Assembly: GCA_964620965.1 (NCBI GenBank)
Contig: CAZUHV010000002.1
Span: forward strand, 117,452-181,451
Source: an uncultured Pseudomonadales bacterium
Lineage (GTDB): Bacteria > Patescibacteriota > Microgenomatia > UBA1400 > PJMF01
Length of the DNA: 64,000 bases
Direction: 5' to 3'
The notes beneath the pieces were generated by a model that saw only the letters and a program-made list of their open reading frames with translations, was not told the origin of the DNA and made no database searches. Position 1 is the stretch's first letter, and each line of letters opens with the position of its first letter. This document shows, piece after piece, positions 3,400 to 23,217 of this stretch. The position numbers and the translations under genes were made by a program.

Positions 3400-3753
3400 A
3401 TGGCACAATACTTAAAATATAAAGACACAGATATTGCAGTTGGTGACACAGTTCGTGTACATCAAGAAATTACAGAAGGTGACAAAACTAGAATTCAAAT
3501 TTTTGAAGGATTAGTTATTGCAATCAAGAATACTGGAAATGGTAAATCTTTTACCGTTCGCAAAATTGGTTCAAATGGAATTGGTGTAGAAAAAATCTAT
3601 CCAATTAACATGCCTCAAATCAAAGACGTTGAAGTCAAACGTAAGGGTCATGTCAGAAGAGCTAAGTTATACTTCTTGCGTGAAAGACTTGGTAAAGCCG
3701 CAACCAGAATTAAAGAAAAAGACACTAACAACAAAACAGCTCAAGCTGAATAA
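3400..3753 (+). CDS. rplS: 50S ribosomal protein L19
   Basis: [29 protein letters not shown]...[22 protein letters not shown] is a classic L19. A Shine-Dalgarno AAAGGA precedes the ATG. Confidence 0.95.
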
Positions 3754-4159
3754 TTTTTCTTTAGGCATAAAAGGCGAAAAAATAGCCTGTGATTATTTAC
3801 TTTCTAAAAAATATAAAATAATCGCACAGAACATTAGAGTTAAAAATAACGAAATTGACATCATAGCGCTTGATACATTGCAAAATGAGCTGGTGTTTAT
3901 AGAAGTCAAAACAAGATCTAGTTTTTTGTTTGGAACTCCTGCATTTGCTGTTTCAAACAAAAAACTAAATAGTATGGTATTCGTTGCAAACCACTATTTG
4001 CAACAAAATAATTGCAATCTAGACTATAGATTTGATATTATAGCCATATCATATTTTGGAGAAAACAATTACAAAAATAATTGTGAATATAGTAAAACTG
4101 CGAATCTGCACAACGCTAAACCCAAAATAGAGCACTTTGAAAACATTAGCTGGCCGTAA
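3629..4159 (+). CDS. YraN-family (UPF0102) endonuclease-like protein; the true start is unresolved
   Basis: Core [34 protein letters not shown]...LVFIEVKTR matches the YraN/Holliday-junction-resolvase-like fold. The longest ORF starts at 3629 and overlaps rplS by 125 nt in another frame. There is no ATG, GTG or TTG in frame between 3694 and the conserved core, so the real start is probably non-canonical near 3746-3770. Confidence 0.65.
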
Positions 4160-5177: not shown

Positions 5178-6218
5178 ATGAGAAAAAATCTAAATAATAC
5201 TTTTTATCTTTCTTTCTTGGCAATTTTGTTTGTTCTTGTGTTTTTAGCAACTCCTCAAAAAGCCTCTGCTGCCCAACTTACGGAAGGATATCTCAGACTC
5301 AATAGAATGAAAGCTTCAACTGCTACCGGAGGCACAGTCTGTGCAAAGATGGCAACAACAGCTGGAACAGACGCTAAAATAAAGGTTACTTTCCCAACAG
5401 GCTTTACAGTAAACTCTACTGCAAGCAACTGGACTGTTACCACTTCCAATCTTCCAGAAAATGGAAGTGCAATGCCAGGTATAGATACTGCAACTGCAGT
5501 ATCTGGACAAACAGTAACTTTCCCGATCTCAGACATTTCTTCAAACTCAACACTATATTGTTTTAACTTTGCAAGTTCTAGCACATTAACTACAAGTACA
5601 GCAGGAAACGACAAAACGGGTTCTATCTCTGTCACTACAAGTGGTGACTCAGAAATAGATGGTGGTATTTATGCAACCTCAGTTATCTCTGATGACCAAG
5701 TAGTTATTACTGCTACTGTTCCTGCAACATTTAGTTTCGCCTTAGGATCTAACACTCAATCACTCGGAACACTTTCAACTGGAAGTGTAAGCTCAGGATC
5801 TGGTGTGAGTGTCACAATTGGAACTAATGCTGGTAATGGTTGGATTGGTTGGGTACTCAGTGCAAATGCCGCCCTTAATTCTGCTGCAACAAGTGATGCT
5901 ATTTCTACGACTGGCTCTGTAGATAACTCCCCTAGCACTCTCTCTGCTGGAACCGAAGGATATGTTTTAGATGCAGATCTTACTTCCGATTCTGCGACAA
6001 GTGGCACTGGAAGTGTGACAATTGATGCAGAATATAATGGCACAACAACAAGTCAAGGTGGAACCCTTTCGACAACATTTACAGAATTCGCCTCTGCAGA
6101 TGGACCAACAGATAGTGACGTTATCACACTTGTCCCTAGAGTTGCAATTTCTGCCTTAACCCAAGCTGCTACAGATTACACTGACACTCTCACAGTTGTT
6201 GCTGCTGGACACTTCTAG
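5178..6218 (+). CDS. secreted Ser/Thr/Gly-rich cell-surface protein, paralogue A
   Basis: Signal peptide MRKNLNNTFYLSFLAILFVLVFLATPQKASA|AQ, then low-complexity beta-rich sequence ending ...ATDYTDTLTVVAAGHF. The C-terminal roughly 100 aa are paralogous to 8864..9907. Confidence 0.7.
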   Translation: MRKNLNNTFYLSFLAILFVLVFLATPQKASAAQLTEGYLRLNRMKASTATGGTVCAKMATTAGTDAKIKVTFPTGFTVNSTASNWTVTTSNLPENGSAMPGIDTATAVSGQTVTFPISDISSNSTLYCFNFASSSTLTTSTAGNDKTGSISVTTSGDSEIDGGIYATSVISDDQVVITATVPATFSFALGSNTQSLGTLSTGSVSSGSGVSVTIGTNAGNGWIGWVLSANAALNSAATSDAISTTGSVDNSPSTLSAGTEGYVLDADLTSDSATSGTGSVTIDAEYNGTTTSQGGTLSTTFTEFASADGPTDSDVITLVPRVAISALTQAATDYTDTLTVVAAGHF

Positions 6219-6241
6219 TCTTTATGTCATAGTATTCAAGT

Positions 6242-7375
6242 ATGAGGATTCGACTTAAGTACATATTTTTTTTGTTTTTCTTAATAGCACAGTTATTCTT
6301 TGTTAATACAAAAATTGCTTTCGCCCAAACTGAAACTAGTGAACCAGAGGCAACCGAATCTGCTCAAGAATTTATATATATCGAACCAAATTCAGAACCA
6401 CTCAACCTTACAATTTCTCCTGCAACCTTACTATTAGATACAAAACCAGGAAACCCAGTAAATACTTCTTTTCAAGTCTTTAATAATTCTACAGAAACTG
6501 AGTATCTTAAAATTGACTTACTCACATTTGGTGCAAATGCCACTGGAGACGAACCGGTTATCAAGCCCTTCGAACTAGGAGATGATTCCGAATCTTGGCT
6601 CACTTTTGATAATAAAAACATAACAGTTCAACCAAAAACTTGGAAAACTGTTCACGTAACCTTTTCTCCACCAGAATCTGCAGCGCTTTCATACTACTAT
6701 TCAATAGTAATTTCAAGACAAACCTCACAAACCATAAAAGAAGGAGAAACAAACGTTGTTGGAGCTCCTGCTTTGCTATTACTTGCTACTGTTCAATCTC
6801 CATACGCAAAGCAAGAGTTACAGTTGAAAAGCTTCAAAACTACAAAAAAAATATTTGAGTTTCTTCCTGTGGAATTTGAGTTAACAATACAAAATACAGG
6901 AAATGTACATCTTGCTCCAGTTGGTAACATATTTATAGATAGCAGCAGAGAAAAAGATGTTGGATTGATTCAAATAAACAGAACAAATGGTCTCATACTT
7001 CCAGGCTCAACAAGAACATATACACTAAGGTGGGAAGACGGATTTCCAGTTTTTGCCGATAAACAAGTAGATGGCTCTATAGTAACTGACTCAGCCGGAA
7101 ATCCAAAGAAAGAACTCAAATGGGATTTTTCTAAAGCAAACTTTTTTAGGTTTGGAAAATACACTGCACACCTTTTATTTATTTTTGACAACGGAGAAAG
7201 AGACGTCCCAACAGAGGCTAAACTATCATTTTGGGTCCTACCATATAGGATACTTGTTATCTTTGGTTTAGTTGGAGGTACAACTATTCTTGGGATAGCC
7301 ATCCCACTAGTACTTATATTTAAACGTATGCGAAAACAAAATGAAAAAAAACAAACTCCCACTGAAACTAAATAG
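6242..7375 (+). CDS. secreted beta-sandwich protein with a C-terminal transmembrane anchor (CscA-like, DUF916/DUF3324-type architecture)
   Basis: N-terminal signal peptide, a LTISPATLLLDTKPGNP...FQVFNNS segment, a TIQNTGNVHLAPVGNIFID motif, and a C-terminal TM ILVIFGLVGGTTILGIAIPLVLIF followed by a basic tail KRMRKQNEKK. Confidence 0.65.
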   Translation: MRIRLKYIFFLFFLIAQLFFVNTKIAFAQTETSEPEATESAQEFIYIEPNSEPLNLTISPATLLLDTKPGNPVNTSFQVFNNSTETEYLKIDLLTFGANATGDEPVIKPFELGDDSESWLTFDNKNITVQPKTWKTVHVTFSPPESAALSYYYSIVISRQTSQTIKEGETNVVGAPALLLLATVQSPYAKQELQLKSFKTTKKIFEFLPVEFELTIQNTGNVHLAPVGNIFIDSSREKDVGLIQINRTNGLILPGSTRTYTLRWEDGFPVFADKQVDGSIVTDSAGNPKKELKWDFSKANFFRFGKYTAHLLFIFDNGERDVPTEAKLSFWVLPYRILVIFGLVGGTTILGIAIPLVLIFKRMRKQNEKKQTPTETK

Positions 7376-8279
7376 ATACTTTCATATTCTTTTTCTATTT
7401 ATTTTTATATACTTCTTTCCAAAAGCAGTATTTGCACAAGAATCTCTTACTGTTTCGCCTGCATACCAAGAAGTAGTTCTTGAACCTCAAAATGATTCTA
7501 GTGAGTTCAGTATCTCTATCAGAAATGACACAAAAATAGCAGAGTCTTTCGAACTATTTGCTGTTGAGTTTCCTTCTGGTGCACAGTTTGGATCACTTGG
7601 ATTTATTGATTTTGATTCAAGCGATATTAAACAACAGCCGAGCTACATTTCATTTGACACTCAACAGTTTGTTGTTGATCCAAATACTTCAAAAGAAATT
7701 CACGCTACTATCGAAAACCGAGCAAGCTTAAAACCAGGTGGAACGTATCTTTCTGTTATTATTCGATCCTTGAGAGAAAAAAATAGCTCTGGGCAAACAA
7801 TTCTTCCAGCATTCGCTTCTCAACTTCTAATTCGAAAAACTGAAGGTGAGATAAAAAATATTTCACTTAAAACTGTCAGCGATACAGACAAAATTATATC
7901 ATTTACGATCCCAAAAACTGTAAAACTGTTATTTGAAAATAATGGAAATGTACACCTCATTCCTAGAGGAGAAGTGCGAATCGATACAGTATTTGGTGAA
8001 ACAATAAGTCAAGGAATAATTAATGAATCATCTTCTTATGTATATCCAGATAGTCAAAAAGAAATTACTGTACAGCTTTCTCAAGTAAATAAAAAAATAC
8101 CAATCTCGCTCATCACAATTACTGCTTTTGGCTCAGCCAATTCTATAGAATATAGAGCAGAACACTCATATATTTATATCAACCCATACTTTGTGGGCAT
8201 ATCCGCAACACTTTTTTTCTTGTTTATACTCTATGCATTCAAAAAGATAAAAAAACAACCAAAACATGAAACTGAATAA
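7341..8279 (+). CDS. second CscA-like secreted protein with a C-terminal TM anchor; paralogue of 6242..7375
   Basis: Signal peptide, LTVSPAYQEVVLEPQND...FSISIRNDT, ENNGNVHLIPRGEVRID motif, and C-terminal TM YFVGISATLFFLFILYAF plus KKIKKQ. It overlaps the previous gene by 35 nt. Confidence 0.65.
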   Translation: MKKNKLPLKLNRYFHILFLFIFIYFFPKAVFAQESLTVSPAYQEVVLEPQNDSSEFSISIRNDTKIAESFELFAVEFPSGAQFGSLGFIDFDSSDIKQQPSYISFDTQQFVVDPNTSKEIHATIENRASLKPGGTYLSVIIRSLREKNSSGQTILPAFASQLLIRKTEGEIKNISLKTVSDTDKIISFTIPKTVKLLFENNGNVHLIPRGEVRIDTVFGETISQGIINESSSYVYPDSQKEITVQLSQVNKKIPISLITITAFGSANSIEYRAEHSYIYINPYFVGISATLFFLFILYAFKKIKKQPKHETE

Positions 8280-8844
8280 AGTTATTTTAATCTGTACAAC
8301 TGTATTTTTTGTTATACTTTTTAGTATATACCTGTGGGGAAATACACCAAATTCCGGTGAAATCATTAGCACAGCTCAAACCACACAATTAAATGAAGAT
8401 CTAGAAATTAAAACTAATACAGAAGAAAAAAATTCTTGTTTTTCATTTTTTCATGATCAAAACATTACTCAAATCAAAACAGAAGAATTCGATACAACTT
8501 GTATCATTCGAGCAAAAGTCGAAAAACCAATTGGACAACTGAGCATTTCTGTTGTTCAAAATACAGAAAATAAAAACTTTGACTTAGCAGAACAAACCGG
8601 AGTAACCTTACGAAAAAGTTTGCCCGATATCTACACACAAGAAATAAATATCCAAAACAAGCCAAAATTTTTTGAAAACGATAGCAATTTCAACTCAATT
8701 ATTTTTACTAATAAAACAGAAATTACAGGATTTTTTACTCAATCGAACAAACTCCTTACCGTTTCTATCCACGATGTTGCTACAATAAATGAAGAAGTTA
8801 TTTCTATCTTTGAAGAAACTCTTGATGGAGTAACAATTTATTAA
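8266..8844 (+). CDS. hypothetical signal-anchored protein
   Basis: A 192-aa ORF with an N-terminal hydrophobic segment ILICTTVFFVILFSIYLW. It overlaps the upstream gene by 14 nt, which suggests an operon. Confidence 0.5.
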   Translation: MKLNKVILICTTVFFVILFSIYLWGNTPNSGEIISTAQTTQLNEDLEIKTNTEEKNSCFSFFHDQNITQIKTEEFDTTCIIRAKVEKPIGQLSISVVQNTENKNFDLAEQTGVTLRKSLPDIYTQEINIQNKPKFFENDSNFNSIIFTNKTEITGFFTQSNKLLTVSIHDVATINEEVISIFEETLDGVTIY

Positions 8845-8863
8845 GTACCACTAAACAAAAGTA

Positions 8864-9907
8864 ATGAAGCCAAAACTGCTGTTTTTATTATTATTCTTTG
8901 TAATACCAGCTAGTACAAATTATAAACTAGACGCACATGGTATTGGATCGGGTGGGGGAATCACAAATTCATCATCTTATTCATTACTAGGAACAACCGG
9001 AGAACAATCTAGTAAAACAGAGGGATCTTCATACTCTGTTTGGTCTGGGATTCAATTTGCCGAAATGGCAAATACTCCACCTGCACCAACATTTGTTAAT
9101 GAAGATTCATACTATAATAAGCTAAGAATTACACTTGATACTGGAAATAATCCAACAGATACCCTCTACGCAATAGCAATTTCTACAGACAGTTTTACCA
9201 CAACAGAATATGTACAGTCGGACAACACTGTTGGCTCCACACTTGGAAGTGAAGATTGGCAAACATATGCAGATTGGGGAGGAAGTAGTGGTGAATTCGT
9301 TGTAGGGCTTGATGCTGATACAACCTACCAAGTAAAAGTAAAAGCAATTCAAGGAGATTACACAGAAAGCCCATATGGACCAAGTGCTTCTGCAGCAACT
9401 TCCGCTTTAACACTTTCTTTTGATATTGATGTCAGTTCAATTGATGAGGAAACAGCCTCACCTTATGAAGTTTCTTTAGGTTCACTCAATCCCGACACTG
9501 TTATCACGGCAACAGATAAAATATGGCTCGATCTTTCAACAAATGCAAATAATGGAGCAGTCATTTATGTGGCTGGCAGTACCGGAGGTTTATACAGCAA
9601 CTCTACAGCACACACTATCTCTGGTGTCAGTGCAGATTTAACTGGAGTATCAGAAGGATTCGGCTTAAAATCTGCAAGTGTTGCTGAAAGCAGCGGAGGT
9701 CCCTTAACTGCTGTTTCTCCATATAATGGTAGTAGTGATACTGTTGGTACTATAGCAACAACACTTGCATCTTTGTATAATACCTCTACTGCACCAATTA
9801 GTGCTGCAAGAGGGTCAATAGATATCAAAGCAAAGGCACAGTCACTCACACCTTCTGCAACAGACTATGCTGAGACTTTGACGTTCATTGCCGCAGCTAA
9901 TTTTTAA
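8864..9907 (+). CDS. secreted Ser/Thr/Gly-rich cell-surface protein, paralogue B
   Basis: Signal peptide MKPKLLFLLLFFVIPAS. The C-terminal region EGFGLKSA...YNGSSDT...ATDYAETLTFIAAANF aligns with the C-terminus of 5178..6218. Confidence 0.7.
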   Translation: MKPKLLFLLLFFVIPASTNYKLDAHGIGSGGGITNSSSYSLLGTTGEQSSKTEGSSYSVWSGIQFAEMANTPPAPTFVNEDSYYNKLRITLDTGNNPTDTLYAIAISTDSFTTTEYVQSDNTVGSTLGSEDWQTYADWGGSSGEFVVGLDADTTYQVKVKAIQGDYTESPYGPSASAATSALTLSFDIDVSSIDEETASPYEVSLGSLNPDTVITATDKIWLDLSTNANNGAVIYVAGSTGGLYSNSTAHTISGVSADLTGVSEGFGLKSASVAESSGGPLTAVSPYNGSSDTVGTIATTLASLYNTSTAPISAARGSIDIKAKAQSLTPSATDYAETLTFIAAANF

Positions 9908-9982
9908 TCAAAAAATTCCACCGTTTCGGACTTTGTTCTACTAGTTAATAGCGTAGAGAAATTGCTATATTGACAAGGTAAT

Positions 9983-11833
9983 ATGTTTAATAAAAACCAC
10001 TGGTTAGCTGGTCTTGTTTTTGGTAGTGTACTCATGCTCTTTTCAGTGGTATTTTTTAATCCAATTTTTGCTGCAACAGGAATTAATGAAAACATACATT
10101 TTCAAGGCAAAGTAGTAAATACAGACGGCACAAATGTAGCAAATGGAGACTACGATTTTGTCTTCAAACTCTATACTGTAGATTCTGCGGGAACTGCCAT
10201 TTGGACAGAAAATAGAACTTCTGCAAACCAAGTCACAGTCACCGATGGGGTCTTTAGCGTAGACTTGGGATCTGTGACTGCACTACCTGGTTCCGTTGAT
10301 TTTAATACCGATAATATTTACTTGGGTGTTGAATTTAACGGGGATGGAGAGATGAGTCCAAGAATCCAATTTACTGCTGTTCCATATGCTCATAATGCCG
10401 CAAAAGTTGGGGGACTTACTGTTACAGATACAACAAGCACTCTTACAATTCCAAGTGGTATAACTGTTGCTTTTTCTGGCTCAAATGATACAACTTTTAC
10501 AACATCAGGATCTACTAACGTAACACTCCCAACAACCGGTACACTTGCAACTCTTGCAGGGAGTGAAACTTTGACAAACAAAATTATTGGAAACACAGGT
10601 CTTACTTTTTCTGGAGCAACTACAGACATTACAACAGGAACCAACGAACACCTTTCAATTATGCCAAATGGAACTGGAAATGTTGGTATTGGAACTACCA
10701 ATCCATCAGAAAAACTGTATGTTTACAACTCTGTTAATAATCAAACTGGTTTTGTAGTTAGCAATGATAACTCCGGCAGTGCAGCTCAAGCCTTCTTTGC
10801 TATTGGTAGCAATCCTACAGCGAATCCATGGAATGGAGTATTTTTTCAGCACTATGGAGCAAACTTTACACCAAATGGCTTAAGAATGCCTAGTTCAACA
10901 ACAATAATTGGTGGTGGAAGCAATGGCTTAAGTATTGGAACAGATAATAGTTCTTCACTAAACTTTTTTACTAGTGGTGTTGCAAGTGGGGCAGATATGA
11001 CGTTAAATAGTAGCGGAAACTTAGGTATTGGAACAACAAACCCTACAGAACTACTACACGTTAATGGAAATATTAGAGCTAATGGATCAGTGGCTGGAGT
11101 AACAACTCTAGCAAGCTCTGGAGACTGGACTTGGACTGCGACAACACCAAACATTACAATTAACTCTGCTGAAGTTTTTACTATCACTGATGGCACTGAT
11201 ACTTTTACAGTTAATACCTCCGGCTCATTATTCTCATTCTTAGACGGATCTTCAAATGGGTTTACATTTGACGCTGATACAGGCCCTCTATTCGCTGGTA
11301 CAGCAAGACCTGCAAGAAAAGAAAAACTCGTACCAGAATATCCAGGTGCAGTACTTACCGGAGACGGAAGTAATAATACTGGAACTATGACTTCAGACTT
11401 CTGTGAACAAGGTGCACATGCCGATATCCCTGATATAAACACCACAACTTGTAATACGTCTGGAGATATCCACAACTACTACAGCTGGACTACCAATCAA
11501 GGATCTGCTCAAGATTATGACATTTGGGTGCGCTGGAGAATTCCAGATAACTTCGCCGTATGGGATTCAAACCCAATCCAAGTATATGCAAAACGTACAG
11601 ATACAACTAATAATGCAGTTACTGCGTTCGTATACGACACGGCTGGTGCCTTAAACAATGCCGGAGGCACCCAAATCGCTGGAACAACTTGGACGCAAAC
11701 AGCTATCTCTCTTTCTGGAGGCACTTGGACTGCTGGCTCTTATGTAACTATCAGAATAACCGTAGCCGCTGATACTGGAGGGGATAGTGTGCAAGTTGGA
11801 GAAATAAACCTTAACTACCTTACGAATAATTAG
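9983..11833 (+). CDS. secreted fibre-like surface protein with repeated GN[VL]GIGTTNP motifs
   Basis: Signal peptide ...PIFA|ATG. The repeats GNVGIGTTNPSEKLYV and GNLGIGTTNPTELLHVNGNI are of the type seen in tail-fibre-like proteins. The sequence is Thr/Ser/Gly-rich and 616 aa long. Confidence 0.7.
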   Translation: MFNKNHWLAGLVFGSVLMLFSVVFFNPIFAATGINENIHFQGKVVNTDGTNVANGDYDFVFKLYTVDSAGTAIWTENRTSANQVTVTDGVFSVDLGSVTALPGSVDFNTDNIYLGVEFNGDGEMSPRIQFTAVPYAHNAAKVGGLTVTDTTSTLTIPSGITVAFSGSNDTTFTTSGSTNVTLPTTGTLATLAGSETLTNKIIGNTGLTFSGATTDITTGTNEHLSIMPNGTGNVGIGTTNPSEKLYVYNSVNNQTGFVVSNDNSGSAAQAFFAIGSNPTANPWNGVFFQHYGANFTPNGLRMPSSTTIIGGGSNGLSIGTDNSSSLNFFTSGVASGADMTLNSSGNLGIGTTNPTELLHVNGNIRANGSVAGVTTLASSGDWTWTATTPNITINSAEVFTITDGTDTFTVNTSGSLFSFLDGSSNGFTFDADTGPLFAGTARPARKEKLVPEYPGAVLTGDGSNNTGTMTSDFCEQGAHADIPDINTTTCNTSGDIHNYYSWTTNQGSAQDYDIWVRWRIPDNFAVWDSNPIQVYAKRTDTTNNAVTAFVYDTAGALNNAGGTQIAGTTWTQTAISLSGGTWTAGSYVTIRITVAADTGGDSVQVGEINLNYLTNN

Positions 11834-11835
11834 AT

Positions 11836-14800
11836 ATGCATATGCTCTTCCAACAACTCGCAAAAATTAAACTTAAGAAAAAAATACTTGTTAAGTCAAC
11901 AAGATTTGTTTTAGCACTCTGGTTTATTATTTCTAACTTTTTGTTTGGCTTTCCAATTGACTACATTTTAAAAACACCAGTTGTGATTCAACAAGCGAAA
12001 GCAAATTCAAACACCTATGACTTTACTGACTGTGGCAGCACCTGTGATACTGACACCGGGTGGTGGGCATCTGACGATGATGTCGATCAGTTTCCGTTTG
12101 GTGGAGTTACAGCAAATCGAAACACACATGCAGAAGCAGACGATACAAACTATTCTAATATGGCAAACTCAGATGATACTTATGCAGTAGCAACTAATCC
12201 AAGCACTGGAGATGAAGTATTCAGCTGGTTTGAAATGACCATTACTGAAACGCCAAGCACTATTAAACAACTTGACTTTACTTTTGAAGGGTATCCTAAC
12301 ACTACTGCCTCACCATTTCAAATTTATGTCAAAACCGCCGCTGGTGCCTATGAATCTGATGCTTCATGGACTGCGCTTTCTGGACCAACAACAATTGCAG
12401 CTGGTACTGACACAACGATAACTCGTACACTCAAAGATAATATTACTGATTACATCGATGGAAATGGCAAAATAGTTTGGGGTGTCTACCAATCTGTATC
12501 AGCGCTTACCGTTAATATCGACTACGCAAAAATTGACGTTACATACCATCCAGTTGATTTAGAAGGATACAGATGGAGAAATGATGACGGCAACGAAACT
12601 GGCGCTACTTGGCTGGCAGATCAAGACAGCAATATTACTCAGCCAACAGCAACCAATACTAGACTGCGCACACTCATTAACTCAACGGGTACCGCTGATC
12701 CAGATACAAGCCAATATAAACTTGAATATAAACGTTCTACTGACAGTACTTATGTCCCAGTCGAGGTCACAACTCCCACAGATGTCACACCGACAATAGA
12801 ATCATGGTCTTCTGGTGCTTCAACTACAACTAATGCGTCTACTCATGCCATCACAATGCCTTCTGGAATTACTGCTGGTGATTTGCTTATCATAGTTTTT
12901 TCAACAGATGGTGTCGCAGATATTACCATCACAGCTGGTGATTGGATTGAACTAAGTCAAGCTCAAGGAAGTGGCGTTTCTAGTGGTATTTTTTATAAAT
13001 TTGCAACGGGCTCTGACACTGCAACGGTTGCAACTGGTTCAGAACAGACTTCCCATATTGTCTATAGAATTAGTGGTGCTAGTATGCCATATATTGCCCA
13101 AACAACTGGAAATAGTACTAACTCAGATCCACCAAATTTAGATACTGGCACTTCTCGAAACTATTTGTGGCTTGCTACTGCAACACATGATTCTACTGTT
13201 GTTGCATCAGCTGCGCCAACAAACTACTCAAATCTACATACCCAAGCTGCTGCAGGAACTGGTGGAGCATCTACGAGTACTGCAGAACGAGCTGCAACTG
13301 CCTCAAGCGAAAACCCAGGTACTTTTACTAGCAATACAGAGCAATGGGTTTCTTTTACAATTGCAATTCCTTCTTCAAGTATGGGAATACATTGTGCAAC
13401 CGCTCCAACAACCCAAGGTACAACAAGTGTTGTTATAAACTATCCAACGGATATAGCTGTCGGTGATCTCATGGTTCTGGGCATTGCAAATAAACATACT
13501 CCAAATGGTCCAACAACTCCCACTGGCTGGACTGCTGCCTCAAACTACCAAGCCTCAGGGAGTGGAGGTATTGATGGTCTAGACAGTGGAAGTGTGTACT
13601 CGTCAGTTTATTACAGAATTGTTGATGGTACAGAAAAAGGTACTTTTACTGTGAGTGTTCCCTCTGGAAATGCATCTATTGGCAGAATTTTGACGTATCG
13701 AAAGGAAGTCGGCAAAGAATGGGATGTTGCCATGTCAAATGGATCAGACAATACTCCAGATACCTCTTGGTCAATCACTGCTGGTTCTGACCCTGGAATA
13801 ACTGCTGGAGACATGGTCTTAGCGGTCAGTGCAATGAATACTGATCCCTATGGATATAACACACAAACCTTAGCAGCAACTGGCGTAACTTTTGACAGTG
13901 CAGAAAAAGAAGTCGGTGAGACAAATAGTACTGCTGGTAATGACCTTGAAATTGTTTTTTCAAACCATTTTGCGATTTCTGGCACCAGTAGTGCTGCTCC
14001 AACATACACTATGACAGCTAGTGGTTCTACTGCCAGTGGTCCTGCTGGAGCAACTGTTTTTGTGAGAATCCGCCAAAGAACTGCTCCAATCACTTTGTCT
14101 GCAAGTACTCATATTACTGCAAGTGGTGATAATACTACTGCTTTATTAACTCCTCCAGCAGGAAAAACTACTGGTGACTTTCTTACTGGTCGTATGCAAG
14201 ATGATGAAAATCCCGCAGATACTATTAACCTCTCTTCTAGCCAATACACAGAACTAGAATGGAATATTATTGCAACAAGTACGGCTGTGAATGATGAAAT
14301 TTACCAATTTAGAGTAACTGTAGGAGGTGTGCCAATTACTACTTACTCTGTAACACCACAGTGGACAATCGGTACTGCTGGAACGGCAGACCTTAATCAA
14401 ATTCATTACCGCTGGAGAAATGATGATGGCACAGAAGGATCATCTGGCTGGTACGATTCAAACTGGGTGTATAGAAAAAAGCTCACAATTGATAATACAG
14501 ATGTGGCAGGTAGTTCTAACCTCACCAACTTTCCTGTCTTGATTAACTATACACACGCTGATTTAAAAGATACAACCAACTCTGGTCACGTAGCACAATC
14601 AGATGCTGGTGATATTCTGTTTACTAACTCTGCGGGTACTAAACTTGACCATGAAATTACCAAATATGTGCCATCAACAGGTCAAGTAATTGCTTGGGTA
14701 GAAGTTGATGTTTTAGACTATGACGATGACACAGAAATTTATATGTACTATGGTTACGGTGCGGCTAGTGACCAATGGAATATAAGCGGAACTTGGAGCA

Positions 14801-16584
14801 ATGGCTATGTTATGGTGCAACATTTTAACGAAACTTCAGGAACTCACTTTGACTCTACTTCCAATAATAATGATTCAACCTCTGTGACTGTCACAACACA
14901 AGGTACTGCCACAGCCCAAATTGATGGAGCTGATGATTTTAATGGTTCTAATAACTATGTTGCCGTTGGTGATTCCAATTCACTAGATGTTACAAATTTT
15001 ACTATTTCTGGATGGTTTTCTATTGATACATTTCCTGGAACAGATCAATACAATAATATTCTTGATAAACAAGCCTATTTCCTTGAAGTAACAGATAACG
15101 ACGAATTTGACTGTGGAGTATACGATGGAAGTTTTTCTGAACATAACTCTGGTACCGCAAATCTCTCAACCGGAACTTACTACTATCTTGCCTGTGCATA
15201 TGATGATACGGGGGATACTGTTAGATTATATAAAAATAGTACTGAAGTATTAAATGAAGCTGCAACCAAAACACCAGCAACAAATAATATCGATATTGGT
15301 ATATACGCTCTTAGCGGAAATTTAGGCCAACAGCTCGACGGTCAAGCTGATGAGCTGGTTCTATCTAATGTCGCCCGTTCTGCGGATTGGCTCAACACCG
15401 AATACAACAACCAAAGTAATCCTGGAGTTGGAGGCTTTCTCACCAGTATAGGCACTGAAGAAACCGAAGGAACGGGCGCAACCTGGTTAGCGAATGAAGA
15501 CACGGCAGTTACAGATATTGCTAAAGAAACAAACGTAAGAATAAGATTTATGGTTTCTAATGAAGGTGGTGCTACATCAGATGCTACAGCATACCAATTA
15601 GAAGTTGCAGAAACTGGTACTTGTAGTGGTGGAACATATGCTGCTGTCCCAACTGACACGAGTGGAGACTGGCAAGTTTCGGCCTCAGCACATTTTACAG
15701 ACGGAGATCCCACAACAAATATTGCAAGTGGTCTAGCAGATGAAAACACAACTTTTGTTGCTGGACAAATTAAAGACACTGGCAACACTACAGGAAATAT
15801 CACATTAGCAGATACAGAATTTACAGAAATAGAGTTTTCCATTCAAGCTACAACCAATGCTACTGACGGTGGCTCGTACTGCTTTAGATTAAATGGTGCA
15901 GATACGTTCACTGAATACGCACAAGCCACACTCGAGGGAGGGGCAAGCCCCGTTTTTTCACTGAGTGCCTATCGATTTTATGATCAAACAGCTTCAGAAA
16001 ATGTCACAAACCCTTGGGGAAATCCTACTATTGCTGAAAATACACTACTTGCTCTTCTGCCAGCAACTAACACTCCTCCAGGAAATAGAGAAGATATAAG
16101 ACTAAGAGTTGGCATATCAGTTAGTACTGGGGCACTCTCCGCAACGAGTCAACAATTTAAATTACAATACAAGTCAGGCACTGATGCAAACTGTACTACA
16201 GGGTCATGGACTGACGTTGGAACGTCTATTAGTAGTGAAACATGGAGATACTCTACAACAGGTATCACTGACGGTACAACGCTGACAGCTCTTAAATTAT
16301 CTGGAAGTGATGTATTAGGCGTGTATGTAAAATCAAATCCAAGCGCAACAAACCCAAATGCTGTAGCTGTTGGAGAAACAGTTGAATATGATTTCAACTT
16401 TAAAGGCTTTAGTGCTGCATCAGCAACCACATATAGCTTTAGAGTTGTCGAAAGTGATGGAACTCCTTTAACAACATACACCTACTGTCCGACTCTTACA
16501 ACAAAAGCCGCTACAGAACAAGAATTACGGCACGGAAACGTGTTTTCTAATGAGACAGAACAAGGATTTACCCGTGCAAATTAG
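11836..16584 (+). CDS. giant (1582 aa) surface protein with Ig-like repeats and DUF2341 and LamG/concanavalin-like modules
   Basis: N-terminal TM FVLALWFIISNFLFGF. Repeated domain-start motifs appear: EGYRWRNDDGNETGATW, IHYRWRNDDGTEGSSGW and GTGATWLANEDTAV. A DUF2341-like segment reads WVYRKKLTIDNTDVAGSSNLTNFPVLINY...GDILFTNSAGTKLDHEI...IYMYYGYG. A LamG-like segment follows: FNGSNNYVAVGDSNSLD...FTISGWFSID...YYLACAYDDTGDTVRLYKNS. Confidence 0.8.
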   Translation: MHMLFQQLAKIKLKKKILVKSTRFVLALWFIISNFLFGFPIDYILKTPVVIQQAKANSNTYDFTDCGSTCDTDTGWWASDDDVDQFPFGGVTANRNTHAEADDTNYSNMANSDDTYAVATNPSTGDEVFSWFEMTITETPSTIKQLDFTFEGYPNTTASPFQIYVKTAAGAYESDASWTALSGPTTIAAGTDTTITRTLKDNITDYIDGNGKIVWGVYQSVSALTVNIDYAKIDVTYHPVDLEGYRWRNDDGNETGATWLADQDSNITQPTATNTRLRTLINSTGTADPDTSQYKLEYKRSTDSTYVPVEVTTPTDVTPTIESWSSGASTTTNASTHAITMPSGITAGDLLIIVFSTDGVADITITAGDWIELSQAQGSGVSSGIFYKFATGSDTATVATGSEQTSHIVYRISGASMPYIAQTTGNSTNSDPPNLDTGTSRNYLWLATATHDSTVVASAAPTNYSNLHTQAAAGTGGASTSTAERAATASSENPGTFTSNTEQWVSFTIAIPSSSMGIHCATAPTTQGTTSVVINYPTDIAVGDLMVLGIANKHTPNGPTTPTGWTAASNYQASGSGGIDGLDSGSVYSSVYYRIVDGTEKGTFTVSVPSGNASIGRILTYRKEVGKEWDVAMSNGSDNTPDTSWSITAGSDPGITAGDMVLAVSAMNTDPYGYNTQTLAATGVTFDSAEKEVGETNSTAGNDLEIVFSNHFAISGTSSAAPTYTMTASGSTASGPAGATVFVRIRQRTAPITLSASTHITASGDNTTALLTPPAGKTTGDFLTGRMQDDENPADTINLSSSQYTELEWNIIATSTAVNDEIYQFRVTVGGVPITTYSVTPQWTIGTAGTADLNQIHYRWRNDDGTEGSSGWYDSNWVYRKKLTIDNTDVAGSSNLTNFPVLINYTHADLKDTTNSGHVAQSDAGDILFTNSAGTKLDHEITKYVPSTGQVIAWVEVDVLDYDDDTEIYMYYGYGAASDQWNISGTWSNGYVMVQHFNETSGTHFDSTSNNNDSTSVTVTTQGTATAQIDGADDFNGSNNYVAVGDSNSLDVTNFTISGWFSIDTFPGTDQYNNILDKQAYFLEVTDNDEFDCGVYDGSFSEHNSGTANLSTGTYYYLACAYDDTGDTVRLYKNSTEVLNEAATKTPATNNIDIGIYALSGNLGQQLDGQADELVLSNVARSADWLNTEYNNQSNPGVGGFLTSIGTEETEGTGATWLANEDTAVTDIAKETNVRIRFMVSNEGGATSDATAYQLEVAETGTCSGGTYAAVPTDTSGDWQVSASAHFTDGDPTTNIASGLADENTTFVAGQIKDTGNTTGNITLADTEFTEIEFSIQATTNATDGGSYCFRLNGADTFTEYAQATLEGGASPVFSLSAYRFYDQTASENVTNPWGNPTIAENTLLALLPATNTPPGNREDIRLRVGISVSTGALSATSQQFKLQYKSGTDANCTTGSWTDVGTSISSETWRYSTTGITDGTTLTALKLSGSDVLGVYVKSNPSATNPNAVAVGETVEYDFNFKGFSAASATTYSFRVVESDGTPLTTYTYCPTLTTKAATEQELRHGNVFSNETEQGFTRAN

Positions 16585-17191
16585 AATAATTACTTTTGCA
16601 ATATTTTTTCTTTTTTTAGTGTTTATAACATACAACTTGTTTTTTGTTCCAGATGATCATTCAAAATCAGAAGGGTCAACTCTCGCTCTTTCAAGTGATG
16701 GTTCAAAAACAGATATATTTATTCAAGATAGTGAGACTCTCATACCTATCTCTACAGCAAGTGCAAATCATAATGAAGCATTCTCCAGAGGAGACTTTAT
16801 AGTCTGGATAGAAGAATCTCAATATAAAAGTGAAAAAGTTGTCGTTCGGTATCATGTTCCTACACAAACTACTATCTACATAACTTCACTTGGAAGTTCA
16901 CAGAAACCTAAAGTTAGTACAGAAGGTTATGTTGTATGGCAAGAATGGATAGATGAAACCTGGCAGATTTTTTACTTTGATGGTTTGACCAGCAAACAAA
17001 TAACTCACAGTAGTTCGAGCTCTCTTAATCCAGATATTTCTGGAAATACAGTTGTGTATGCTAGAAAAAATGAATCTAACACATGGGAAACTATTGAATT
17101 TTCCCTTAAAAATAACACTGAAAAAGTGGTTAAATCTGGAATTGAAGCTAAAAATCCCTATTTTTATGGCACAAAATTATTTTTTCGCTGA
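16550..17191 (+). CDS. hypothetical signal-anchored protein (beta-propeller-like fragments)
   Basis: A 213-aa ORF with N-terminal TM IITFAIFFLFLVFITYNLFF. It overlaps the end of the giant gene by 35 nt and ends with TGA. Confidence 0.5.
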   Translation: MRQNKDLPVQIRIITFAIFFLFLVFITYNLFFVPDDHSKSEGSTLALSSDGSKTDIFIQDSETLIPISTASANHNEAFSRGDFIVWIEESQYKSEKVVVRYHVPTQTTIYITSLGSSQKPKVSTEGYVVWQEWIDETWQIFYFDGLTSKQITHSSSSSLNPDISGNTVVYARKNESNTWETIEFSLKNNTEKVVKSGIEAKNPYFYGTKLFFR

Positions 17192-19897
17192 AAAATGAAT
17201 TTCATGTAAATATACACTGATTTCGGTATTTAGATAAAGTAAAAAATTTCCCAAAGAAAGCACTAAAAATGGAATTGCATAGTGTTTTTCATATACAAAA
17301 ACAAATAGTATTGCAGTTACTAATGACAAAAGTAAATTAATTTCCAATGCGCTGTCTAAAAAGTGCTTTAACAAAGATATTACTAACGAAAAATAGGATT
17401 TCTGAGCACTCTCTTTTTCAAGTTTTAATAGAGTACTTTCTTCAACTTCTGGCTTAAGATCAATCGACTGTGGAGCATAACCAGGAGCTACAACAGAAGC
17501 TGTAAGTGCTTCATCTAAGCTTTTTGGTACAAAAACCAATCCGTTTCTATGAACCTGTATCAGACTCTTTATCTGACCAGCAGAATCTTGAACTGTCACA
17601 ACTGCATTTCTCACCAACCGCTCAGTCTGAGTATCAACAAGCTTAATTTTATAATACTGACTTCCACCAACAACTAAGGTCTTCTTTTTACTAAAAATAA
17701 ATCTATGGTGGTGCAAAACAGAATGCAGTAATGTTCTTACCGAAAAATGAGATCGGGTTAAAAATCCAAACAAAGTAAGCGGGGTAGTAATACATAAAGT
17801 TAGCAGTGTAATCAATGTCAGCGTTGCATGAGACTCAGATTCCTTTTTCAAAAAGGTAACAAATAACTCAGTCTTTATTTTTGCTGTTTCAACATGATAT
17901 TCCACAGTTTTAAAGTATGGAAAGTATTCTTTTTCTAAATACAGTTGTGGGTAAAAAGTTGCGTTTGTAGTGTCAAATTCTAGAGATTGAGGGACATACC
18001 CAGTACTTTCAACCTCAATAAAATACTTGCCTTTAGGAAAAATAATGTCAATGCTACCTGCTGAGTTTGTAACATATTTTTCAAAAAAATCATATAATTT
18101 TGTAGTCTCATTATATTTTTTTATGTTCACTTTAGCTCGTTCAATCGGAAGTTTTGAGGCAGAATCATATACAGAAAAAGGTTGTACTACTAACAACTTT
18201 CCTAGACTAATATTTTTTTTGCTTCCAGCAAATGATTCTAAAGTTAGATACACCTGATATTTTCCAGGAATGTGTGGAATGGTCAAAGACCCAGACCAAA
18301 TCCCGTTTTGGATTTGGCTTATCTGAGATCCATACTGTGATTCTCCAAGTACTAAGCCTAAATCAATATCTGTTATTGTTTGTAGATATAAAGTTACCGA
18401 CTTTGTATCAAAACCTTCTAACAGTGGCAAAATAACTTCAAGCTCACTTCCTGCAGGAATGAGTAAATATTCCGGATCACCTAAGGAAGGAGAAAAAATA
18501 GGTTTTCCTTTCGAACTAACTGTAAAAGAAGTAAGTGTTACTGGATATGAGTCACTTGCTGTTAAAAATGCTAGTCGTTCAGAGCTACTTTGAACTCCAT
18601 TTTGAATTGAACTCAATAAGACATGGTATTCTTTATCTGGAAACAAATTATCTAAAACCAAGCTGTGGACCTTCTGTATTTGTAGTGACTCAAACACCTC
18701 TAACTTGGTCCCATCAACTGAGTAAACCGTCGCAGTTAGAGTACCAGGAGTATTCAAAATAACCTGCAACTCAGCAGATGTGCTCTCTACCGCAACTATT
18801 TTGTATGATACATACCCCGAAGATGCAGTTGTAGTAACTGCTGTTTGGCTTGTTGTACTTGCAGCCGGCGAAGAAGTTGGGGTAGGTGTACTCCCAGTAT
18901 TTGAAGTCGAAGATCCAGAAGAGCTTGAAACATACTTATAACTCACTTCACTTGTACTGTCTGTTGTGGTAACTGGATTTGTAATACGACTATTCACTTG
19001 AGCTGTTACTTCAGAGGACCCTGTATATTGAGCTGTAGTTTTTAGTATAAATGAGACTGTTTGGTTTTGAGTATTACCAGGAATTGCTGAAATCGTCCAA
19101 GTAATTGTTCTGTTGGTTAAGTTGATAACCGGCTCTGTATTATTATAAGCATCAGTGGCACTCCCAGCTACGTACTCAAAAAGGTCTACTGATGGAGAAC
19201 CAGCTCCAAAAATCGTCCCTTGTTCCCATTCTGCGACAATCGTTAGAGGTGTTGAAAAATCGTACTCAGTTCCATAAGTGATCACATACTCAATCTGCGT
19301 ATTCTGAGGAATTTGAGTTACTGAATCCTGCGTACTAATAACTGCAGAAAAATCAGAAATAGGAGGCAAAACTTGACCTGTAACAACTATTTGATCGTTT
19401 GAAACTACTGGAACAACTATGTCGACTAGATCAACTTGAGAACCACCTTGCCTTGTTTCTAACTGCCAAATATATTCACTAGAACTTCCTTGAGTACTTG
19501 GGTTGTTAGTTATTCCTCCAGTGATATAAAAACCATACGTTATTCCAACAGATAGATCCCCACTTGGAAACACTACTGTCTGCCCAGATTTTTGAACTGC
19601 TGTTCCAATACCTGGCCATGCAGTAATACCACTTGGTAGACCTGAAGTTGAAACTGTATATGAGCTCGCTACACTTGATATTGTCCATAAATTTGAAATC
19701 GTAACAGCTACTTGATCTTCAGTAACTCCTACACTTGAAACTGTTGCTGTAATCAAAACTGGAAGAGGAACACTTGAAACCTTATTTCTCTCTGGTCGAA
19801 CTGTTGCATTAGAAAAATCTGCCAAAACAGACTGGGGAATAAACAAAAAAAAGACCAACAAAAAGAAAGCTGTGACTCGACAGATAAGTTGTTTCAT
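17177..19897 (-). CDS. large (906 aa) secreted/anchored surface protein with carboxypeptidase-regulatory-like (Cna-B-like) domains and C-terminal TM helices
   Basis: Signal peptide MKQLICRVTAFFLLVFFLFIPQSVLA, long Ser/Thr-rich tracts, and a KYFIEVESTGYVPQ-type beta-sandwich. C-terminal hydrophobic segments flank a His-rich loop (LHSVLHHHRF). It is convergent with the plus-strand cluster. Confidence 0.75.
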   Translation of the reverse strand: MKQLICRVTAFFLLVFFLFIPQSVLADFSNATVRPERNKVSSVPLPVLITATVSSVGVTEDQVAVTISNLWTISSVASSYTVSTSGLPSGITAWPGIGTAVQKSGQTVVFPSGDLSVGITYGFYITGGITNNPSTQGSSSEYIWQLETRQGGSQVDLVDIVVPVVSNDQIVVTGQVLPPISDFSAVISTQDSVTQIPQNTQIEYVITYGTEYDFSTPLTIVAEWEQGTIFGAGSPSVDLFEYVAGSATDAYNNTEPVINLTNRTITWTISAIPGNTQNQTVSFILKTTAQYTGSSEVTAQVNSRITNPVTTTDSTSEVSYKYVSSSSGSSTSNTGSTPTPTSSPAASTTSQTAVTTTASSGYVSYKIVAVESTSAELQVILNTPGTLTATVYSVDGTKLEVFESLQIQKVHSLVLDNLFPDKEYHVLLSSIQNGVQSSSERLAFLTASDSYPVTLTSFTVSSKGKPIFSPSLGDPEYLLIPAGSELEVILPLLEGFDTKSVTLYLQTITDIDLGLVLGESQYGSQISQIQNGIWSGSLTIPHIPGKYQVYLTLESFAGSKKNISLGKLLVVQPFSVYDSASKLPIERAKVNIKKYNETTKLYDFFEKYVTNSAGSIDIIFPKGKYFIEVESTGYVPQSLEFDTTNATFYPQLYLEKEYFPYFKTVEYHVETAKIKTELFVTFLKKESESHATLTLITLLTLCITTPLTLFGFLTRSHFSVRTLLHSVLHHHRFIFSKKKTLVVGGSQYYKIKLVDTQTERLVRNAVVTVQDSAGQIKSLIQVHRNGLVFVPKSLDEALTASVVAPGYAPQSIDLKPEVEESTLLKLEKESAQKSYFSLVISLLKHFLDSALEINLLLSLVTAILFVFVYEKHYAIPFLVLSLGNFLLYLNTEISVYLHEIHFSAKK

Positions 19898-19973: not shown

Positions 19974-20684
19974 ATGACTAAAAAGAAACTTTTTGGAACA
20001 GCTGTACTCATTGTTTTATTTGTTGCTATTACTGCAACAGCAGCATATTTTTACTGGCAATATTCTCAAGTAGTAAAAAAGAACTCTACAACAGAAGTCA
20101 CACAATTAGTAACAGAAATTGGGGAAATTATGCTATTACCTAATTCTTTACCAACAGTTGCAACAGTAACAGAAAAAGAAAAACTTGAACCCCAAAGCTT
20201 TTTCAAGAATGCAGAAAATGGAGACAAAGTTCTCCTCTATATTGAAGAAAAAAAGGCCATATTGTACAGGCCGTCTATAAAAAAGATTATTGAAGTCTCA
20301 CCAATTCAATCTGACACTACTGCTCAAAATCAACTTGAACAAACTATTAGTAACACCACAACCGACAGTGCTGCAGAAACAGAGCAAGAAGCTGAACCTG
20401 TGCCAACTATTGTGTTATATAACGGCACAGAAACGCCTGGAATTACTAGTAGTGTCGAAAAATCATTATCCTCACTTCCATTTGAGTTCGAGGTCCTAGA
20501 AAAAGAAAATGCTCAAGAAAATACATATGAAGAAACTAGAGTATTTGATATCAGTGGGAAATACTCTGATAAAGCGGAAGAAATTGCAAAAACATTAAAT
20601 GTAACTGTAGAAACAGAACTGCCAAGTAGTGAAAAAGAACCAAAATCTGATATTCTTATTATTGTTGGAAAAGATAGGTTATAA
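19974..20684 (+). CDS. membrane-anchored LytR_C-domain protein
   Basis: N-terminal TM LFGTAVLIVLFVAITATAAYFYW. The C-terminal region PTIVLYNGTETPGITSSVEKSL...ILIIVGKD resembles the LytR cell-envelope-related C-terminal domain. Confidence 0.6.
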   Translation: MTKKKLFGTAVLIVLFVAITATAAYFYWQYSQVVKKNSTTEVTQLVTEIGEIMLLPNSLPTVATVTEKEKLEPQSFFKNAENGDKVLLYIEEKKAILYRPSIKKIIEVSPIQSDTTAQNQLEQTISNTTTDSAAETEQEAEPVPTIVLYNGTETPGITSSVEKSLSSLPFEFEVLEKENAQENTYEETRVFDISGKYSDKAEEIAKTLNVTVETELPSSEKEPKSDILIIVGKDRL

Positions 20685-20789: not shown

Positions 20790-21359
20790 ATGAAACAAAA
20801 CTTTATGTCTGGAATGATGATTGCGGTGCTTCCTTTAGGACTTGCAACACATCAAAATCAAACACTCAGTTCTCAATTACAAATACAGAATCAACAACAA
20901 GTTCGCTGTGAAGCAATCTCTAGTATTGAGTTTCCACAATCCAAAACCCTGTCTATAAGTGAAAAAAAAATTGATTTGGAACTATTTGTAGAGAAACAAG
21001 ATCCAGTAACTCCTCAACCCGTTGTGAAAAAAGCACCTGTAGCAGCTCCAGAGGAGCTAGAACAGTTATTCACTAAATACTCCGCTGAGTATGGTATTTC
21101 AAGTGATGCTTTAAAAGTTATCGCAAACTGTGAATCTCACTATAATCCAAATGCACTTTCTAAAAATGGTTTATATGGTGGTATGTTTCAGTTCTCTGCA
21201 AGTACCTGGAGATCAACTAGAAAAGCGATGGGCTTAGATGAAAATCCTGACCTTCGTTTTAATGCAGAAGAAGCTATTAGAACTACTGCATATACAATCT
21301 CAAAAAACGGAGTTGGGGCTTGGCCTCATTGTGGAAAAAAAGTTGCTATAACAGAGTAA
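20790..21359 (+). CDS. transglycosylase-like domain protein (Rpf/transglycosylase-like family), secreted
   Basis: The ANCESHYNPNALSKNGLYGGMFQFSASTWRS motif matches the transglycosylase-like (CES..G..QF...TW) domain. The N-terminus has a hydrophobic signal. Confidence 0.7.
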   Translation: MKQNFMSGMMIAVLPLGLATHQNQTLSSQLQIQNQQQVRCEAISSIEFPQSKTLSISEKKIDLELFVEKQDPVTPQPVVKKAPVAAPEELEQLFTKYSAEYGISSDALKVIANCESHYNPNALSKNGLYGGMFQFSASTWRSTRKAMGLDENPDLRFNAEEAIRTTAYTISKNGVGAWPHCGKKVAITE

Positions 21360-23187: not shown

Positions 23188-23217
23188 AATTCGAGCCTAA
23201 ATTACCCATAAAAAAAT

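Follow-up and report, generated by a model that had tools for sequence, protein, structure and literature searches.

The window analysed here is the whole 64,000-nucleotide stretch of contig CAZUHV010000002.1 (GenBank assembly GCA_964620965.1, positions 117,452 to 181,451 of the forward strand) from a genome deposited as an uncultured Pseudomonadales bacterium and placed by GTDB in Patescibacteriota (Microgenomatia). Within it, we examined a cluster of nine genes, designated G1 to G9, between positions 5178 and 19897, which an earlier note made from the sequence alone had likened to the Gram-positive cell-surface complex (csc, or WxL) loci. The nine open reading frames (ORFs) lie exactly at the coordinates given there. 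G1 to G8 are on the plus strand and G9 is convergent to G8, with which it shares 15 nt; adjacent genes overlap by 35 nt (G2/G3), 14 nt (G3/G4) and 35 nt (G7/G8), and G6 and G7 are spaced by 2 nt. All nine products have an N-terminal hydrophobic signal or anchor segment, as detected by a transmembrane window scan or, for G5, whose segment is shorter than the 19-residue scan window, read from the sequence directly. The same scan revealed an additional C-terminal transmembrane helix followed by a basic tail in G2 and G3, and further internal and C-terminal transmembrane segments in G9, in agreement with the claim that every gene of the set encodes an exported or membrane-anchored protein. The companion claim of an operon fared less evenly: the overlaps of 14-35 nt speak for it, but a promoter and terminator scan of the cluster, in which site counts equalled those of shuffled sequence, gave no support. 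We infer co-transcription from the gene overlaps only, as that scan was uninformative.

G2 (6242-7375, plus strand, 377 aa) consists of a signal peptide, two immunoglobulin (Ig)-like domains, a transmembrane helix at aa ~335-360 and a basic tail, and G3 (7341-8279, plus strand, 312 aa), the second WxLIP-like anchor, has the same architecture; BLASTP confirmed the two as full-length paralogues (24% identity, E 1e-15). Pfam returned merely weak Ig-like matches for them, neither DUF916 nor DUF3324 reached the Pfam threshold in any of the nine proteins in Pfam and NCBIfam scans, and a PDB sequence search with the G2 family profile gave noise or no match. PF06030 (WxLIP_PGBD, that is, DUF916) matched 9 of 38 family members, and 28 of 137 in the larger set, at sub-threshold scores. 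For comparison, bona fide WxL clusters were retrieved from plasmids, the seed being a 49-residue peptide of EfmWxLIP3 pieced together from mass-spectrometry data tabulated in PMC10599100. Profile comparison by hhalign aligned the 137-member family from the Candidate Phyla Radiation (CPR) with nine WxLIPs over 232 collinear columns at 99.05% probability (E 2e-18). Taken singly, the CPR N-domain aligned with DUF916 (96.5%, E 1e-9) and the C-domain with DUF3324 (73%, E 3e-5); cross pairings of the domains stayed below 1% and a reversed WxLIP reached 6%. Moreover, when a hidden Markov model (HMM) built from Firmicute WxLIPs was searched directly, its strongest matches (E as low as 1e-9) were ORFs classed as G3-type. 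Judged by these profiles, G2 and G3 are predicted membrane-anchored two-Ig-domain proteins and genuine remote homologues of WxLIP (DUF916, DUF3324 and a transmembrane helix), and for the C-terminally anchored beta-sandwich proteins the csc idea is thus upheld.

The second Ig domain of the G2/G3-type proteins carries a near-invariant motif, N-x-G-N-V-H-x-x-P-x-G (G2 aa 218-228, window 6893-6925; the G3 equivalent reads ENNGNVHLIPRG). In the hhalign consensus, only its first Asn aligns with a residue conserved in Firmicute WxLIPs. The motif region is a candidate site that could hold the C-terminus of a partner.

DUF916 had surfaced in such genomes before. Table S5 of PMC10599100 gives DUF916 matches for TM7x (5.9e-11) and for a genome of the Kazan group (5.2e-14), and Table S2 of PMC10633639 records a structure-based DUF916-like annotation for Southlakia epibionticum SEML1_0626; the abstracts and searched main-text passages of the two papers do not mention these entries. 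The earlier statement that csc-type loci are not expected in a CPR-like genome was therefore too strong, given that Saccharibacteria DUF916-like and WxL-like proteins are tabulated, without comment in those passages, in both papers. In the searchable literature we found no paper discussing a WxL/DUF916-type cluster in Patescibacteria, such matches being confined to supplementary tables.

The two secreted proteins adjoining the anchors are G1 (5178-6218, plus strand, 346 aa) and G5 (8864-9907, plus strand, 347 aa). G1 comprises a signal peptide, an N-terminal Ig-like domain (aa ~36-181, nt 5283-5720) and a C-terminal domain (CTD; aa 183-346, nt 5724-6215) ending in ...AATDYTDTLTVVAAGHF. G5 comprises a short signal peptide, three S-x-x-Y-x-L repeats, a middle region and a CTD (aa 190-347, nt 9431-9904) ending in ...ATDYAETLTFIAAANF. 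Their proposed paralogy was narrowed to the C-terminal ~160 residues (29% identity, E 3e-7) and did not extend to the remainder. The presence of two secreted proteins with a common C-terminal domain next to the anchors nevertheless parallels the architecture of WxL clusters, as had been suggested. The G5-type repeats, S-x-x-Y-x-L...G, occupy window 8918-9058 (G5 aa 19-65) and recur in protein P0416 (aa 30-95); the region following them in G5 appears fn3-like by eye, and no Pfam family matched G5 aa 1-200. G1 itself had no Pfam match and no PDB sequence match, whether searched with its own sequence, its homologues or the family profile, and its AlphaFold2 model shows two beta domains (pLDDT 82).

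Homologues of G1 fall into more than 1,480 clusters at 90% identity, and the 120 listed show 57-83% identity. Aligning 26 homologues showed Cys55, Cys128 and the terminal Phe to be invariant, with little or no variation in the mature N-terminal region and in the C-terminal motif AATDYTDTLTVVAAGxF. G5 homologues form 897 clusters, and an HMM search matched G5 at E 1.7e-60. Among 1.84 billion proteins, the profile of the ~160 shared residues recovered 1,110 representative clusters at E <=1e-3. In all 150 listed representatives the CTD ends at most 5 residues from the C-terminus of the protein, and in 128 it coincides with it; 143 of the 150 have F, Y or W as their final residue. Most carriers are of G1 or G5 size, while some reach 2,564 aa and bear, N-terminal to the CTD, DUF2341 plus LamG modules (P0408 and P0397, in other genomes), TIG arrays with or without NHL propellers, or weak fn3 matches. 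At locus L095, a 1,300-aa DUF2341/LamG protein ending in a CTD is followed by a G1-like gene and then by three WxLIP-like genes, with a G6-like fibre gene divergently upstream. Two further proteins, P0391 (1,131 aa) and P0399 (707 aa), are fusions of a WxLIP-like module of two domains (aa ~40-348) with a C-terminal CTD. These fusions (P0391 at L097 2228-5623) form a putative link of the Rosetta-stone type between the WxLIP-like and CTD families, with an artefactual gene call or assembly being possible. Small CTD-only proteins were considered as an analogue of small WxL proteins and discarded, as many of the short representatives are genes truncated at contig ends. No Pfam or NCBIfam family covered the CTD in any member scanned. 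On these comparisons the CTD is to be regarded as a new, previously undescribed domain family and not as a recognisable WxL domain, and it seems to serve as a general "address tag" for surface proteins.

The earlier note had likened the pairing of the anchors with two secreted proteins that share a C-terminal motif to csc (WxL) loci; that this shared part of G1 and G5 is a WxL domain we could not substantiate. PF13731 (WxL) matched none of G1, G5, 26 G1 homologues and 7 large CTD proteins, and hhalign of the CTD against 12-16 real WxL domains, run in local, greedy, global and enlarged-profile modes, was non-significant throughout, giving 0.5-1% probability and P 0.05-0.12, the range of the negative controls. 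The sole aligned piece was the last beta-strand, AA-DYtdTLTv in the CTD against A--Y-ttLtW in WxL, which was likewise non-significant. G5-type CTDs have no Trp at either Trp-x-Leu motif position. In the reverse direction, the best match of the WxL HMM to CPR proteins was at E 0.0066; its matches were enriched in CTD proteins and also in Thr-rich fibres, and we set this signal aside as probably compositional.

A divergent csc/WxL cluster is one way to read the locus: the CTD would be a WxL domain that has drifted beyond recognition and would bind peptidoglycan as in Firmicutes. The solid WxLIP homology of G2 and G3 fits this reading, as do the best, non-significant hhalign segment, which pairs the C-terminal strands, a low-stringency alignment that is collinear over 131 columns, and the TNAxxGWxxWV sequence of G1, which resembles by eye the first WxL motif v-D-RGt--GW-L-V. 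Further support comes from PMC10633639, whose tables list a 188-aa S. epibionticum protein that adjoins the DUF916-like gene and has a WxL-domain protein as its best Foldseek match (TM score 0.85), a lead that makes a CTD-WxL relationship conceivable. The control-level hhalign scores, the failure of PF13731 in every member scanned and the lack of both Trp-x-Leu motifs in G5-type CTDs count against it, as does the solved WxL chain not being among the listed structural matches. We consider this reading improbable. According to Tables S1 and S2 of PMC10633639, the 188-aa protein belongs to a small cluster, SEML1_0625-0628, that encodes LPXTG-anchor-like Ig, DUF916-like, 188-aa WxL-like and 1,284-aa fn3/RCC1 proteins; in the main text of that paper, as searched, these locus tags did not come up.

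We compared the cluster with the WxL (csc) clusters of Bacilli as described by Siezen 2006 (PMC1534035) and by Hassan and Williamson (PMC9772566, PMC10599100; PDB 9i1y, 9i25), using the definition of Hassan et al. 2023. Of the features in that definition, the WxLIP with DUF916, DUF3324 and a C-terminal transmembrane helix has its counterpart in G2 and G3; at least two WxL-domain proteins within four genes (PF13731, two Trp-x-Leu motifs) are not found here; and the partner domain that is always C-terminal, in small and large proteins alike, is found as the CTD and not as a WxL domain. The definition also includes binding of the partner domain by a WxLIP strand, for which the synteny described below and the two WxLIP-like/CTD fusions offer indirect support here. 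An LPXTG (CscD-type) protein is usual in such clusters, not obligatory. Pfam and NCBIfam scans detected neither an LPXTG family match nor a sortase in our cluster, where G4 is anchored by an N-terminal transmembrane helix instead. Both systems have a homologous two-Ig-domain anchor with a C-terminal transmembrane helix and basic tail, at least two secreted partners with a common C-terminal domain, large versions with N-terminal adhesion or glycan-binding modules (here in other genomes), and a tight, probably operonic gene set whose products are all exported. The CTD is accordingly WxL-like in three respects, being C-terminal, adjoining WxLIP-type genes and following adhesion modules, and still fails as a member of the WxL family. 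In contrast to the Bacilli clusters, whose partner domain closes with a WxL-type motif and a Pro after it, the CTD has an aromatic last residue; each cluster holds two or three anchors in place of the usual one, and the anchors bear the N-x-G-N-V-H-x-x-P-x-G motif, which is specific to their family. Furthermore, a MAT-like fibre gene is a constant member here, LPXTG protein and sortase are missing, and the cluster is widespread in Patescibacteria, not confined to Bacilli. As far as sequence can tell, WxLIP is the one component through which the cluster shares ancestry with the Gram-positive WxL/csc clusters. Among the plasmid clusters retrieved, WxL and DUF916 genes adjoin CpaF/VirB11-type ATPases in Listeria pLIS25 (L092) and Bacillus mycoides p207 (L093), and in L092 a thioester-domain adhesin adjoins them as well; some WxL clusters may thus be part of conjugation or Tad-like surface machinery.

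G6 (9983-11833, plus strand, 616 aa), a fibre-type protein with an N-terminal signal or anchor, combines a conserved N-terminal module (aa ~12-240, nt ~10016-10702) with a C-terminal part that varies. Conservation across loci is limited to the first ~230 aa of this family; the C-terminus is hypervariable and total length ranges from ~370 to 2,380 aa. G6 aa 25-104 aligned with positions 5-82 of NF053851 (Bdello_MAT_N) at E 2.8e-9 and 37-38 bits, below the cutoff of 60, and the same model matched 44 of 48 G6-type members at E <=1e-3, with a best value of 5.6e-11. The suggested check of G6 against peptidase S74 and tail-fibre profiles came back empty, with neither Peptidase_S74 nor a tail-fibre match in Pfam or PHROGs, and a PDB sequence search with the G6 family profile gave noise or no match. 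The MAT family is defined by a ~130-aa beta-rich N-terminal domain, a trimeric fibre and, in part of the family, an S74 protease/chaperone. Bdellovibrio MAT fibres have a conserved beta-rich module right after the signal peptide and a variable mosaic distal part, an arrangement that G6 appears to share. A further parallel with Bdellovibrio is that the organism of our window probably lives on other bacteria, which we assume from the epibiotic habit of cultivated Patescibacteria. G6 differs in its sub-cutoff score, in that no S74 peptidase domain was found, and in that its gene is syntenic with a candidate docking system. It has been proposed that MAT fibres retain one conserved end for holding on the cell, the docking partner being unknown (PMC10769870).

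The cluster was traced through GTDB, with one genome for each species, by means of only two peptide patterns from G1; these found 181 genomes, and 79 loci were kept; the window's proteins were mapped on each locus, and companions were counted only in loci with enough flank. G2/G3-type genes lay directly downstream of G1 in 56 of 57 loci, a G5-type gene was present in 44 of 46 and a G6-type fibre gene in 38 of 41. The core of G1, G2, G3, G5 and G6 occurs together in nearly all 79 species-level loci in two fixed orders, and G1 identity across the loci spans 44-80%. The order of our window, G1-G2-G3-G4-G5-G6-G7, recurs in eight loci (L002, L003, L005, L006, L008, L009, L013, L058); the alternative, G5-G1-G2-(G2)-G3-G6, was found in records labelled Moran-, Saccharibacteria, Andersen-, Berkel- and Paceibacteria. 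Homologues number in the hundreds to thousands for each of the three families searched, and the few with a named source are all labelled Patescibacteria (Woese-, Roizman-, Moran- and Andersenbacteria, Microgenomates). Within the 64-kb window, the CTD occurs only in G1 and G5, the WxLIP-like architecture only in G2 and G3, and the fibre module only in G6. With gene order retained in dozens of species, the notion of a defined system gained support, and we lean, with a little more belief than doubt, towards the cluster being the local copy of a surface-display and attachment operon conserved across Patescibacteria. Many records of metagenome-assembled genomes that carry the cluster (L006-L013, L015-L034 and others) are titled "uncultured Pseudomonadales" or "uncultured Bdellovibrionales"; these titles were treated as errors, the G1 of L026 being 90.6% identical to a Moraniibacteriota-labelled protein.

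The remaining genes are less uniform. G4 (8266-8844, plus strand, 192 aa), a small protein with an N-terminal membrane anchor placed between the anchors and G5, had no family match in Pfam or NCBIfam; homologues stand at the equivalent position in L004, L006, L007, L008, L013 and L081. G8 (16550-17191, plus strand, 213 aa) is N-terminally anchored and peripheral to the cluster, with beta-propeller-type repeats (TIGR04275 at E 1.2e-11, below cutoff). The two had been grouped as small signal-anchored proteins, and of this the anchors were confirmed; in sequence the two proteins proved unrelated. G7 (11836-16584, plus strand, 1582 aa) carries an N-terminal transmembrane anchor, and both modules predicted for it scored above the Pfam gathering thresholds: DUF2341 (PF10102, aa 923-1008, nt 14602-14859; 38.3 bits, cutoff 23.4) and Laminin_G_3 (PF13385, aa 1036-1185, nt 14941-15390; 55.8 bits, cutoff 27.6, E 7.7e-15). 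The remainder of the protein matched no family. G7 homologues follow G6 in L002 and L003, with DUF2341 and Laminin_G_3, and in L006, L007, L009 and L058, as found by phmmer. From its domains, G7 is probably a glycan-binding adhesin.

G9 (17177-19897, minus strand, 906 aa) consists of a signal peptide, a G1-like domain (aa 33-176), a Ser/Thr linker, Ig and CarboxypepD_reg-like domains, and transmembrane segments at aa ~695-713 and 850-868. Its aa 33-176 (window 19315-19801, minus strand) are paralogous to G1 aa 39-181 (5292-5720), with 35% identity and E 9e-15. G9-like genes without the G1-like domain adjoin the cluster, on either side, in L002-L004, L068, L069 and L081. The G9-like proteins of L002-L004 match only G9 aa ~166-873 and appear to have no G1-like N-terminal domain.

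This uneven periphery is what a loose collection of unrelated, merely adjacent surface-protein genes without a common function would predict: for G8 we saw only close copies and one weak homologue, G9-like genes vary in position and strand between genomes, and G4 was detected in some lineages only. Such an accident is nonetheless hardly credible for a core kept in two fixed orders in nearly all 79 species-level loci, which, at the spread of G1 identity given above, are not near-identical copies of one lineage. Translational overlaps moreover join adjacent genes, and fusions between the WxLIP-like and CTD families exist.

We rate it somewhat above an even chance that the WxLIP-like anchors, the CTD proteins and the variable-tipped fibre form a cell-surface attachment apparatus. 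In this model, following Sec export, the ectodomains of G2 and G3 would capture the CTD of G1 and G5, and elsewhere that of the large LamG, NHL/TIG and fn3 adhesins. Capture may proceed by beta-strand complementation, the way in which PapD-like chaperones act on pilins, possibly involving the near-invariant terminal aromatic residue. For WxLIP and WxL, beta-strand complementation is what AlphaFold2 predicts (PMC10599100). The CTD proteins would thereby be tethered to membrane and wall, and the highly conserved G1, perhaps together with G5, would serve as a platform. The MAT-like G6 would dock on this platform by its conserved N-terminal module and present a fast-evolving tip, and this tip and the LamG giant G7 would bind glycans or surfaces of the epibiont's host cell. 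The genes downstream of the cluster provide supporting context for this model, as they include cell-wall genes: a LytR_C protein directly downstream (19974-20684), an SLT-type transglycosylase (20790-21359) and a YkuD L,D-transpeptidase (24771-25499). Between these envelope genes lies a minus-strand pair of a GCS2 ligase and a RimK-like ATP-grasp protein (21964-24693). On the other side of the cluster, a UPF0102/YraN-like ORF (3629-4159, TTG start) overlaps an L19-like gene (3400-3753) by ~125 nt; its true start probably lies further downstream than the listed TTG, because the Pfam match begins only at aa 49.

Several points weigh against the attachment model. The CTD has no significant sequence or profile similarity to WxL, chain 9i25_A of the solved WxL-WxLIP entry 9i25 does not appear in the list of structural matches to G1, and the CTD-WxL analogy draws on position, synteny and fold class. 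The possibly related SEML1_0625-0628 cluster is non-essential for growth on the host: in the transposon-sequencing (Tn-seq) data of PMC10633639 that cover these genes, all four are non-essential and disruption of one gives a growth advantage. A role of G6 and G7 in host binding is suggested by their domain types only. Finally, G1 keeps its 57-83% identity among the 120 listed homologues across several Patescibacteria lineages, which exceeds the needs of a simple displayed protein and hints at a polymer or lattice.

This last point leads to a different assignment of roles, in which G1 self-polymerises into a pilus-like fibre or an S-layer-like lattice, G2 and G3 act as membrane-bound PapD/WxLIP-like chaperones or assembly platforms, and G5 and G6 are minor or tip components. 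G2 and G3 would cap the incomplete beta-sandwich of G1 until donor-strand exchange, yielding an usher-less, chaperone-assisted filament. Pilins are anchored in PapD by their C-terminal carboxylate, and the aromatic end of the strictly C-terminal CTD is reminiscent of this arrangement. Also in keeping with a polymer are the near-housekeeping conservation of G1, its invariant Cys pair, N-terminal region and terminal Phe, and the two G1 copies found at some loci. The chaperone-usher pili (CsuC with CsuA/B or CsuE) offer a further likeness in that two G2 homologues bear the JGI product name "P pilus assembly chaperone PapD". Of the soluble PapD-like chaperone, usher and donor-strand pilins that define those pili, however, only the chaperone fold has a counterpart here. 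The G2/G3 "chaperone" remains fixed in the membrane by its transmembrane helix, with no sequence-level relation to PapD detected; ORF, Pfam and NCBIfam searches of the cluster revealed no usher-like ORF or family match; and no pilin N-terminal extension or donor strand was identified in the cluster. Patescibacteria are commonly considered to have no outer membrane. A TasA-like filament or archaeal bundling pilus, defined by a PF12389 (Peptidase_M73) jelly-roll subunit that a SipW-type signal peptidase and a TapA-like partner often accompany, was rejected: PF12389 was absent from G1, G5 and their homologues, no other pilin family matched, and the cluster contains no signal peptidase gene. Nor does it contain a sortase.

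The filament explains the housekeeping-level conservation of G1 better than the attachment model does, and it accommodates less well the occurrence of the CTD on many unrelated large passengers, which suits an anchoring module more than a polymerising pilin. We regard it as unlikely, though as the main rival it is worth serious consideration. A more elaborate form of it, to which we give somewhat less credence still, makes G1 the subunit of an unrecognised Patescibacteria-wide surface polymer, assembled without an usher by donor-strand complementation on membrane-anchored WxLIP/PapD-like chaperones, with the MAT-like fibre as its variable host-recognition tip. If G1 does polymerise in this manner, Firmicutes WxL clusters, chaperone-usher pili and the present system would all branch from a single ancient principle of strand complementation, and the result would point to the kind of docking partner to be expected for Bdellovibrio MAT fibres.

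The homology of G2 and G3 extends the range of the WxLIP family well beyond Bacilli. It also suggests that the partner domain of WxLIP is replaceable, or has diverged beyond recognition, which bears on the workings and the origin of WxL systems. Host attachment in Patescibacteria is largely unknown beyond type IV pili, and the cluster is among the best-conserved exported gene sets seen in these genomes, with more than 1,480 G1 clusters and 181 species-level genomes. Because it joins the WxLIP anchoring principle with a new C-terminal domain family and a fast-evolving fibre tip, the cluster is a testable candidate for host recognition and specificity in these bacteria.

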